Source of the DNA: Escherichia coli
GTDB taxonomy: Bacteria > Pseudomonadota > Gammaproteobacteria > Enterobacterales > Enterobacteriaceae
Reading direction: 5' to 3' (one strand)
NCBI RefSeq assembly: GCF_016903815.1
Contig: NZ_CP069973.1
Length of the DNA: 64,000 nt
Numbering within the stretch: the stretch's first letter is position 1; each line of letters opens with the position of its first letter. Made by a program: the position numbers. Positions 30,601-33,600 of this stretch are shown here, one piece after another.

Positions 30601-33600
30601 GCGAAATTATTGCGGGTCACGGTCGTGTTATGGCGGCTGAAATGCTCAAAATGGATTCTGTTCCGGTCATTGTTCTGTCTGGCCTGACGGATGAGCAGAA
30701 AAAGGCGTACCGCCTGGCAGATAATCGCCTGCCGATGAATGCTGGCTGGGATGAAGATCTGTTGCGGATGGAGCTGTCGGACCTAATCAATGCTGATTTT
30801 GATGTCTCCCTGACAGGCTTCATCCCGACAGAAATTGATGAACTGTTGACGGATGTTTTGCCCGGTACAGGAAATGAGGAGGAGCCGTATACGACGAAAA
30901 TTGATACGCCTGTTTATGAGCCGTCGGGCGGTAAACCGGATATCAGTGAACTGTACGACGATACGAAAACTCAGGAGCTGATCAGCCGGATACGTTCGGC
31001 GTCCCTTGAGCCTGATATTGAGAAATTCCTCCTGTGTGCGGCAGAACGTCACACGGTGTTTAATTTCAGCAGAATTGCGGACTATTACGCTCACGCCCCC
31101 TCTGAAATTCAGTGTTTTTTCGAGGAGTCGGCGCTGGTGATCATTGATTATCAGCAGGCTATTGAAAATGGATTTGTCCGGATGACGCAGCGCATGGTGG
31201 AGATCATGCATGGTGGTGAGGAGGAGGAATATGCGTGATGATTTTTGCGCCTTTATTCTGACTCACGGGCGACCGGACAAAGTTCTGACTTACCGGACGT
31301 TGCGTCGTGCTGGCTATACCGGGAAAATTTTTATCGTTGTTGATGATGAAGATAAGACACGGCATCAGTACATGGCTGAATTTGGGGAACAGGTGCTGGT
31401 GTTTTCCAAAGCCGATATCGCCAGTCGTTTTGACGAAGCCGATAATTTCTGTGACCGCCGCTCAATTTTTTACGCCCGTAATGCCTGTTTCGACCTGGCA
31501 AAACTGGTCGGGTGTAAATACTTCATTCAGCTCGATGATGATTATCACGAGTTCCAGTTTCGGGTGGATCGCAACTATGACCAGGCCTATTTTCCGATAA
31601 GGAAACTGGATGCGATCCTTTCTGAAATGCTGGCGTACTACGAATCAATACCTGCTCTTTCCATCGCTATGTCGCAGGGCGGGGATTTTCTTGGTGACAA
31701 TGGCGGCCATGCTTCGTGGGTGAAACGCAAGGCAATGAACAGCTTTATCTGTTCGGTTGAACGACCGTTCTCATTCATGGGGCGCATTAACGAGGATGTG
31801 AATACGTACACGAATCTCGGTCGCTGTGGTGAATTGTTTATGACGATCGGTGCTGTCCAGTTAGGGCAGAAACAGACGCAGAAAAACAGCGGCGGAATGA
31901 CCGAGCTGTATCTGGATTCCGGAACCTACGTTAAAAGTTTTTACTCCGTCATGTATGCGCCGTCGTGCGTAAAAATCTCACTGATGGGTGCCAGCCATAA
32001 ACGCATTCACCATCAGGTCACCTGGAACAACGCTGCAGTAAAAATCCTTCACGAAAAATACAGGAAGAAGACACCCTGCATATCAATGGGGGTGACAAAT
32101 GATTCCGTATTCGAAAGTCGAGTCTCTGGCAGCGTGCCGGATGACTGCACAACAAATCGCTGACGTTCTGGATGTTGATCTGAACCGACTGAAAGAAAAT
32201 CGGGAAGCAATGACAGATTTTTATGCGGCCATCCGTAAGGGCAGAGCGAAAGGTGAAGCCGAGTTACGAGCGGCATTGTTTAAGCTTGCCAGAAAAGGGG
32301 ATGCCTTTGCTCTGCGCGAACTACTCAGGGTGGATAAAAATCAGGACTAACTGATGAGCAGACCGGACTGGGGGGCGTTGCAGCAGGAGTATATTGCTGA
32401 ATACACCCGCTCCGGTATATCTCCGGTGGCATGGTGTGAAGCAAGGGGACTGAATTACGCAACAGCCCGTCGTTACATCAAAAAAACTCCGAAAAATGCG
32501 CAGACAGAAATGTGCAAAACTGCGCAAAAAAGTGCGCAGAAAAAATCTGCGCAGACTGCACAAAAGCGGAACGAAAAATCTCAGGAAAAAAAGCCAGTAT
32601 TCGATGCGGGCCTGAATGAGGGCGACGCGGAGGAATTTTCGTTCTGTCCCGATGAATTCGGCATTTCTGACCAGCAGGCTAAGTTTGCGATGCTTGTTGC
32701 TCAGGGTAAAAAGCCGACAGAGGCGTACCGACTAGCCGGTTATGAGGGGCAAGGTGCGACAGCTAATAGCAACGCCAGTCGTATGCTTAGAAATGCCAGG
32801 GTTTTTCGCGCTATCAGCTACTTCCGCAATCAGTACCAGAAACGCTATACCGCAGACCTGGATTTACTAGTGAGTCAGTTGATGGCCATTGTCCTGGCCG
32901 ACCCCAATCAGCTTGCACAATTTCGCCGTGTTAACTGCCGTTATTGCTGGGGCGAGAATCATCTCTACCAGTGGCGCGATATAGCAGAATTCGACAAGGC
33001 AGCGGCGCAGGCTTCCAGAGATGGCAAACCCGAACCGGAATATGGAGGCCTCGGCTTTGTTGATAACGCCATACCCAATCCGGACTGCCCGAAGTGCTGC
33101 GGTGAGGGAACGGGACAGCTTTATATGGCTGATACCACTCTGCTTGATGGGGATGCGCGGCAATTATATGCAGGGGCAAAATTCGGAAAATTCGGCGTTG
33201 AGATCCTGCTGGAGGATAAGGCTGCCGCCCGGCGTGAATTGTTGCGTTTGCTTTCTGCTGGCGGGGCTTTATGTGCAGATAAGCGGCTACAGGAACTGGA
33301 AATTGAACGGCGCAGAATGGAAAACCAGAAGCTGCGCAAAGAGATCGAAACGGTGGAAGATAATGAACATCCCCAGCCTGTGGCGATCAATATTAATGTG
33401 GTTGATGCCAGAGTAAGGAGTGATGAAGATGATCTCTCCGACGCTTAATGTGCCTCAGGCGCGATTTCTTTCAATGCCCCATAAATTTAAAGCCTATATT
33501 GCTGGTTTTGGCTCGGGCAAAACATGGGTTGGGTGTGGCGGCATATGCAAGGGGATTTGGGAGCATCCAGGTATAAATCAGGGATATTTTGCGCCAACGT

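Follow-up and report, generated by a model that had tools for sequence, protein, structure and literature searches.

In bacteriophage lambda, which is a cos packager, the short repeated R-sites of cosB lie beside the cutting site and are read by the N-terminal winged helix-turn-helix (HTH) of gpNu1 (referenced in PMC4669245). For Sf6/P22-like phages, Leavitt et al. (Virology 440:117, listed in PMC8022706) are said to have reported in 2013 that the terminase DNA-binding domain and the pac site adjoin inside the small terminase gene (terS) and are exchanged together horizontally. The P22 pac site is a 22-bp sequence inside gene 3 (PMC9611059), and P1 pac consists of seven TGATCA/G copies that are arranged as 4 + 3 within 161 bp of pacA, with synonymous recoding cutting packaging about 9-fold (PMC10028697). 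In SPP1 and SF6, pacL and pacR contain direct repeats, and the DNA is modeled as contacting many HTH motifs of one G1P ring; the canonical DNA-binding domain of SF6 binds DNA weakly and shows no sequence specificity, and its binding is little affected by the box repeats (PMC4737164). According to a 2022 review, specific pac binding is hard to demonstrate for P22, Sf6, SPP1, and SF6 (PMC9611059). Here we describe an array of six TGYRCA hexamers inside the terS gene of a Rac-type prophage of Escherichia coli. The array is located at positions 32497–32562 of a 64,000-nucleotide stretch of contig NZ_CP069973.1 (assembly GCF_016903815.1), which is referred to as the window. It is under selection at the DNA level, its sequence word covaries with the class of an extra N-terminal HTH domain of the small terminase, and it is proposed to be a pac recognition array.

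Hexamer array and architecture of TerS

An earlier note on this DNA, made from the sequence alone, had placed the six hexamers in a putative small terminase gene, within a region encoding a Lys/Ala/Gln-rich linker, and had considered them a candidate pac site with roughly helical spacing of the repeats. The elements of the gene are as follows.

32354–33448, + strand: terS, small terminase gene, 364 codons (Pfam Terminase_2, PF03592; phrog_51)
32354–32488, + strand: extra N-terminal three-helix HTH-like domain, codons 1–45, proposed reader of the hexamers, with the recognition helix N-Y-A-T-A-R-R-Y-I-K-K
32489–32647, + strand: Lys/Ala/Gln-rich linker, predicted to be disordered, codons 46–98 (predicted local distance difference test score, pLDDT, <50 for residues 52–94); its coding DNA holds the array
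32497–32562, unstranded: array of six TGYRCA hexamers inside terS
32648–33448, + strand: canonical small terminase core with the Terminase_2 DNA-binding/oligomerization region, a CxxC...CxxC insertion, and a C-terminal tail (PF03592, phrog_51, AlphaFold2 helices 99–181, invariant Cys columns)

The six hexamer starts given earlier, from 32497 to 32557, were exact on recheck: TGCGCA begins at 32497, 32521, 32533, and 32548, TGTGCA at 32511, and TGCACA at 32557. The positions of the two variant hexamers are occupied by perfect TGCGCA in most relatives, and the array is kept in 59 distinct relatives. The hexamers share the flanking consensus AAAnTGCGCARAa. TGYRCA occurs 73 times in the window, and nowhere except in the array are at least three copies found within 66 bp; the largest cluster in 300 shuffles contained three. 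Start-to-start spacings are 14, 10, 12, 15, and 9 bp (mean 12), and spacings among the hexamers of relatives range from 7 to 16 bp. The suggestion of helical spacing was therefore not upheld, and helical phasing of the hexamers was rejected on account of these irregular distances.

The assignment of the gene to the small terminases was borne out by two profile matches, one to Terminase_2 (PF03592; 35.1 bits with a cutoff of 26.1, E = 2.4e-08) and one, over the full length, to phrog_51 'terminase small subunit' (2.4e-76). The gene is located directly 5′ of terL, with the portal gene next, which is the position of a Terminase_2-type gene. The array corresponds to terS codons 48–70 and encodes the segment KNAQTEMCKTAQKSAQKKSAQTAQK, which is rich in Lys, Ala, and Gln and predicted to be disordered, in agreement with the earlier description of a linker. 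The first hexamer lies three codons past the 45-residue N-terminal segment.

The N-terminal 45 residues were modeled by AlphaFold2 as a confident three-helix bundle (pLDDT 73–85 in the full model and 82.8 when modeled alone), and the canonical Terminase_2 DNA-binding domain was modeled confidently at residues 99–165. Because the full-length model was weak overall (pLDDT 58.8), the fold search was performed with the N-terminal domain alone. The nearest folds were HTH DNA-binding domains, with three helices and a recognition helix, and the domain is assigned as an HTH with moderate confidence. When the whole TerS protein was compared by sequence with solved structures, it gave no more than a marginal match to a small terminase (Pam5, E = 0.23). 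The N-terminal domain heads phrog_51, 370, 1711, and 2606, which are annotated as terminase families, and phrog_32222, which has no assigned function. Its occurrences are all N-terminal and all in small terminases, over several unrelated cores. This restriction points to a terminase-specific task, which would be DNA recognition.

Selection on the array at the DNA level

The number of hexamers expected from the protein sequence was estimated by synonymous resampling, in which the protein is fixed and the codons are redrawn (20,000 draws). For the window, the mean number of TGYRCA hexamers was 1.6, and the observed number of six was reached in 0/20,000 draws; for exact TGCGCA the mean was 0.43, and the observed four copies were reached in 4/20,000. 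An independent replicate was provided by Klebsiella phage 5 LV-2017 (L002; L numbers are our labels for related sequences), in which six TGCGCA were observed compared with 0.56 expected (0/20,000). The terS homologue of this phage has 44% protein identity to the window gene and ∼70% nucleotide identity in the N-terminal region, and its six perfect TGCGCA are located in the same place and are distributed over all three frames (T-A-Q, L-R-T, and C-A). Across relatives, TGCGCA is likewise used in three frames, as x-A-Q, M/V/L-R-K/T/N, and C-A. In the frame-1 copies, Arg is preceded by Met, Val, or Leu, so the residue varies while the TG is retained.

Codon usage around the hexamers was surveyed in linker codons 40–85 of 54 distinct genes recovered from IMG/VR. 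The Ala codon of the A-Q dipeptides in the linker is GCG in 223 of 237 cases (94%), compared with 20% of the Ala codons in the remainder of these genes. The base before A-Q is T in 228/237 (96%), despite nine different preceding amino acids. The base after the hexamer is free to vary (CAA 118, CAG 105). This pattern is kept over considerable divergence. When the HTH region of the window is compared with distant relatives, 48–62% of the codons for the same amino acid are identical and nucleotide identity is 65–79%, and the same relatives still hold 4–8 exact TGCGCA. The hexamer is retained even in relatives whose protein identity falls to about 40%, with background synonymous sites about half saturated. 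A motif-agnostic statistic, the maximum 6-mer count under synonymous resampling, was significant in every HTH class described below (P from <0.0003 to 0.022) and was not significant in six control stretches of the same gene. The array is under DNA-level selection beyond coding constraint, and the comparison of DNA-level with protein-level conservation in relatives, which the earlier note had suggested, strongly favors a DNA element by the resampling, by the use of three frames, and by the GCG and T bias.

Covariation of the HTH class and the linker word

A peptide pattern placed inside the repeat biases ascertainment. Homologues were therefore re-sampled with patterns in the core Zn-ribbon only, blind to the N-terminus, which gave 46 distinct N-terminal parts; the results on classes rest on these core-only patterns and on matches to N-terminal patterns. 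The gene counts come from related sequences and are not counts of independent events. On one and the same core, at least five classes of N-terminal HTH occur, and the linker DNA of each class has a word of its own that is over-represented.

Class A: the window; linker repeat TGCGCA, 4–7 copies
Class A′: L153, L155, L161, L057, and Yersinia and Providencia phages; TGCGAA, 4–8 copies, some extended to the palindrome TGCGAATTCGCA
Class B: L004/L116, L157, and L158; GTTTCCAC twice, then inverted GTGGAAAC, in three frames
Class C: L156; GGTACGC in four copies (W-V-R, G-T-Q, Q-V-R, G-T-Q) plus one inverted copy (M-R-T)
Class D: L159; GCGAAA, 5 copies

The linker word covaries with the HTH class. The relation is most detailed for the homologous domains of classes A and A′, in which a helix with A-R-R-[Y/H] occurs with TGCGCA in 59/59 distinct genes and a helix with A-K-R-Y occurs with TGCGAA in 6/6 genes. 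The sole A/A′ gene with neither motif is one that is cut by IS1. The module is also not confined to one core, as in Providencia phage PSTCR3 an A′ module with TGCGAA repeats is joined to another core.

In Klebsiella phage 5 LV-2017 (L002, 3290–3335), and also in L066, a second cluster of three TGCGCA is located ∼150 bp 3′ of the main array, in the region coding for the Terminase_2 domain. This cluster was significant under synonymous resampling (2/5,000 and 8/5,000) and is absent from the window. A natural loss of the HTH is found in the Rac-SA53 lineage (L001, 2912–3940; L142 and L143), in which an unrelated segment of 33 residues stands in place of the terS HTH, with a fusion by deletion given in the annotation. 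Two hexamers are intact in this lineage, and three carry one substitution each (TTCGCA, TGCGCT, and TGCCCA); hexamer positions diverge at the background rate (3/24–30 compared with 63/676). This decay, which represents a single event, is consistent with relaxed constraint after loss of the HTH.

Two further observations concern the array as a junction. In E. coli CUWW10 (L003, 3001–3858), IS1A is inserted after terS nucleotide 144–145, at the first hexamer, and the gene is truncated. The edges of several BLAST matches also fall at the array (query positions 145 and 153), which marks it as a mosaic junction.

Proposed role of the array in packaging

We consider it probable that the hexamers form the part of the prophage's pac site that is recognized, with the extra HTH as their reader in headful packaging. 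The context of the array fits a pac site because it lies inside terS, directly after the extra HTH, and because its word changes with the HTH class. The large terminase subunit bears on the mode of packaging, and the two genes that follow terS are as follows.

33420–34730, + strand: terL, large terminase subunit, Terminase_6N and Terminase_6C (Pfam 3.7e-33 and 3.4e-10); as nuclease and ATPase it would be expected to cut close to the array
34733–36139: portal (DUF4055)

The prophage TerL is 43–44% identical to the TerL proteins of Jerseyviruses, its nearest characterized relatives, and Jerseyviruses are headful packagers as determined by PhageTerm and pulsed-field gel electrophoresis (PMC10783031). 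The TerL family and this relationship suggest that the window prophage is a headful packager. The earlier proposal of a candidate pac site has thus gained a DNA-level element in terS, positioned after an extra HTH, with a word that tracks the HTH class and a TerL that groups with headful phages; that the element acts as a pac site is, like the binding of the HTH to the hexamers, the initiation of packaging by this binding, and the position and direction of the cut, inferred from sequence.

In the proposed mechanism, a disordered linker of ∼50 residues ties the extra 45-residue HTH to the canonical Terminase_2 ring, and the DNA that codes for the linker holds five to six copies of what would be the cognate word of the HTH. 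With a half-site of roughly TGCG(C/A), the word of class A would be the palindrome TGCGCA. One terminase oligomer would engage a number of hexamers together through several of its HTH domains, so specificity would arise from avidity, and the flexible tethers would tolerate the irregular spacing of 7–16 bp. The canonical domains and TerL would engage next and cut nearby, and headful packaging would follow. The placement of the sites in linker-coding DNA would cause the least conflict with protein function and would keep reader and sites linked. Since the reader adjoins its sites and protein constraint at the sites is weak, the pair could recombine as one specificity cassette between terminase cores.

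In its broadest form, to which we give about an even chance, this proposal describes a portable cassette composed of a ∼45-residue HTH and a disordered linker that codes for four to nine copies of the HTH's word. It would have been grafted onto at least three unrelated cores (the Rac/Klebsiella Zn-ribbon core and the cores of Providencia PSTCR3 and of the Shiga toxin (Stx) phage 933W) and would supply base-specific pac recognition, a property that the canonical terminase DNA-binding domains displayed on the ring appear to lack, with a code in which helix Arg or Lys corresponds to TGCGC or TGCGA, respectively.

Records of experimentally mapped termini were sought for any phage with the module, and none were found; the vB_EcoS-xxxR records, which are identical to the window, describe in-silico prophages. 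The literature on Yersinia, Providencia, phi345, and Stx phages contained no usable end mapping, and the 933W record is numbered from att sites. Literature searches for TGCGCA together with terminase and for the Rac prophage together with a pac site returned nothing relevant, and no publication on the site or the domain was found.

Alternative explanations for the hexamers

The earlier note had allowed that the repeats could simply follow from the low-complexity protein segment, that is, from codon bias acting on a repeated [T/S/N]-A-Q-K peptide, in which case the DNA itself would have no function. Five window hexamers out of six do share one frame, coding x-Ala-Gln, and the segment that they encode is of low complexity and disordered; moreover, the GATCAT (D-H) repeat of Stx phages, described below, is explicable by the peptide alone (P ∼0.1–0.2). 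However, resampling never reproduced the hexamer count either in the window or in L002, the three frames give unrelated peptides, and neither the preference for GCG in the linker A-Q dipeptides nor that for T before them, whatever the preceding residue, is explained by the peptide. For the TGCGCA class, a peptide by-product is ruled out by the codon survey, the resampling, and the maximum 6-mer statistic, and as a general explanation of the repeats we find it scarcely tenable. It is also very unlikely that the selected feature is a secondary structure of the nucleic acid, in which hairpins between palindromic or inverted copies in mRNA or single-stranded DNA would control translation or act as an antisense terminator. 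The array region folds far better than shuffled sequences (z = −5.3; −7.1 in L153 and −6.2 in L156), and hexamers 4 and 5 form an extended inverted repeat:

32533–32553, unstranded: TGCGCAGA-N5-TCTGCGCA, 8-bp hairpin

On the minus strand this repeat is followed by a T-run and scores as terminator-like, but no convergent minus-strand gene that would need a terminator is located there. Arrays of palindromes fold well by construction, and the stem extension past the hexamer is not conserved, since the codon before A-Q is TCT, ACT, TTT, or CCT in relatives. In addition, copy number is odd in 23/59 genes and copies are gained or lost by indels, homologous A′ genes differ in topology, and folding was not significant in L164 (z = −1.3), L159, and L163. 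Conserved RNA structure was rejected because of this inconsistency of the fold z-scores among homologues, and neither a known RNA family (Rfam) nor a promoter was found at the array.

The hexamers might have nothing to do with terminase and be targets of some other factor of the host or phage, for example restriction-modification sites, sites for a nucleoid protein, or a recombination hotspot at the mosaic junction. TGCGCA is a 6-bp palindrome of the type II kind, and the array behaves as a module boundary, given the BLAST matches that begin or end in it and the IS1 at the first hexamer in one strain. Such a boundary would be expected anyway if the HTH and its sites move as a cassette, restriction sites are usually avoided in phage genomes rather than clustered, and a host factor would not explain why the word follows the adjacent HTH class across Escherichia, Klebsiella, Yersinia, and Providencia; we regard this explanation as highly improbable. 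A less remote, though still unlikely, alternative is that the hexamers are cognate sites of the HTH that serve autoregulation, as a transcriptional roadblock or a translational brake on terS/terL, and not the start of packaging. Covariation and DNA-level selection support binding equally in both cases, and the sites are located inside the transcribed late operon, 5′ of terL. However, the domain is exclusive to the N-termini of small terminases with several unrelated cores, five to nine sites inside terS match the known pac architecture of P1 (PMC10028697), and the array has no promoter-like element. Autoregulation and packaging are also not mutually exclusive.

Comparison with known packaging systems

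Read as a pac recognition element, the array resembles P1 pac, as both are short hexamer arrays inside a small terminase gene, with headful packaging known for P1 and probable here. The bipartite 6 + 3 layout of the Klebsiella-type relatives resembles HEX4/HEX3 of P1, whereas the window has a single cluster and does not share the P1-type arrangement, in which an IHF site and the cleavage site lie between two clusters. Unlike the P1 word, in which GATC places cleavage under the control of adenine methylation, TGCGCA contains no GATC Dam site. The terminases themselves are unrelated (a Terminase_2 core with an extra HTH here, PacA in P1), and the array described here is located in linker-coding DNA just past the presumed reader domain.

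With Sf6/P22-like phages the array shares the principle that one segment of terS carries both halves of the specificity and can be exchanged as a unit. In those phages the sites are single and asymmetric, whereas multi-copy words are found here. The proposed reader is an additional domain, ahead of a canonical terminase DNA-binding domain that is itself complete, and its sites lie in the linker-coding DNA and not in the coding DNA of the reader; the cassette would also be present on at least three cores. The likeness to SPP1/SF6 consists of direct repeats, which in those phages span the terS start, and of a model in which one oligomer places many HTHs on the DNA. In contrast to the canonical domain of SF6, a separate tethered domain would read specific bases here, to judge from the strict conservation of the word and its covariation with the helix. 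Lambda shares the combination of multiple short sites with an N-terminal HTH of the small terminase, for which reading of the sites is proposed here. It differs in that it is a cos packager with sites upstream of Nu1, outside coding DNA, while the TerL family of the window prophage points to headful packaging.

Hexamer arrays as such are already known from P1. Judged from the sequence comparisons, what appears to be new is the extra HTH ahead of a complete canonical terminase, the location of the sites in the DNA of a disordered linker, the occurrence of at least five reader-word pairs on one core, and the presence of the same cassette on different cores. This TerS family would offer a simple and testable answer to the question of how a phage recognizes its own genome, namely a separate tethered HTH that reads a multi-copy word. 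The natural variants (helix R/K with word C/A, and three other classes) constitute ready-made specificity-swap experiments. From a defined pac site whose place in the chromosome is fixed, one could predict which neighboring host genes would be moved by lateral transduction; such a site could also help to design or prevent the packaging of plasmids and phagemids. If the cassette reading is true, the pac sites of hundreds of enterobacterial prophages would be readable from sequence and packaging specificity would be swappable by design. The sharing of the domain with Stx-phage terminases would extend this relevance to toxin-converting phages.

Version of the module in Stx phages

In the small terminases of 933W-type Stx phages, an unrelated core is headed by the same N-terminal HTH (about 40% identity). 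In Escherichia phage vB_EcoP_phi345, which is of the 933W type (L163, 1501–2287), the linker contains four (C/T)GATCAT repeats with an exact 12-bp period, followed by two TGCGCA. These repeats carry GATC Dam sites, which recall P1 pac, and only this version of the module has GATC-containing repeats. Statistically, the Stx-phage repeat is inseparable from an I/T-D-H peptide repeat (P ∼0.1–0.2). Two independent Stx-phage records, PV189402.1 and CP111102.1, both end exactly 787 bp past the terS start, and one of them has a note on joined virion ends and a circularly permuted genome, which suggests that the genome ends of these records were placed inside terS.

Prophage context and neighboring genes

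The window contains a full-length Rac-type lambdoid E. coli prophage that looks intact. Its gene order is recET, kilR, sieB, the immunity region, lysis genes, trkG, a ParB-like gene, a glycosyltransferase gene, terS, terL, portal, a P22-type capsid, and a lambda-like tail. This terS is carried by 895 of 5,426 complete E. coli genomes (about 16%). Among the strains with the intact prophage is E. coli 7/2 (NZ_CP023820), in which identity to the window over terS is 100%.

Directly 5′ of terS, an 83-residue open reading frame (32099–32350) matches positions 145–218 of the 319 positions of phrog_309, another small terminase family (E = 8e-23), and has no Pfam or NCBIfam match. It may represent either a further small DNA-binding protein for packaging or what is left of a displaced terS. 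Between trkG and terS, two coding regions overlap, one for a full-length ParB_N/Srx-family protein (30447–31238), known in K-12 as ynaK and intact here, and one for a TET-associated glycosyltransferase (TAGT; 31210–32163, Pfam 1.2e-34). The two may form a phage DNA-modification pair, although a TET/JBP partner was not seen nearby. The potassium transporter gene trkG (28834–30309) is a cargo gene located between the lysis cassette and the packaging genes, as in the Rac prophage of K-12.

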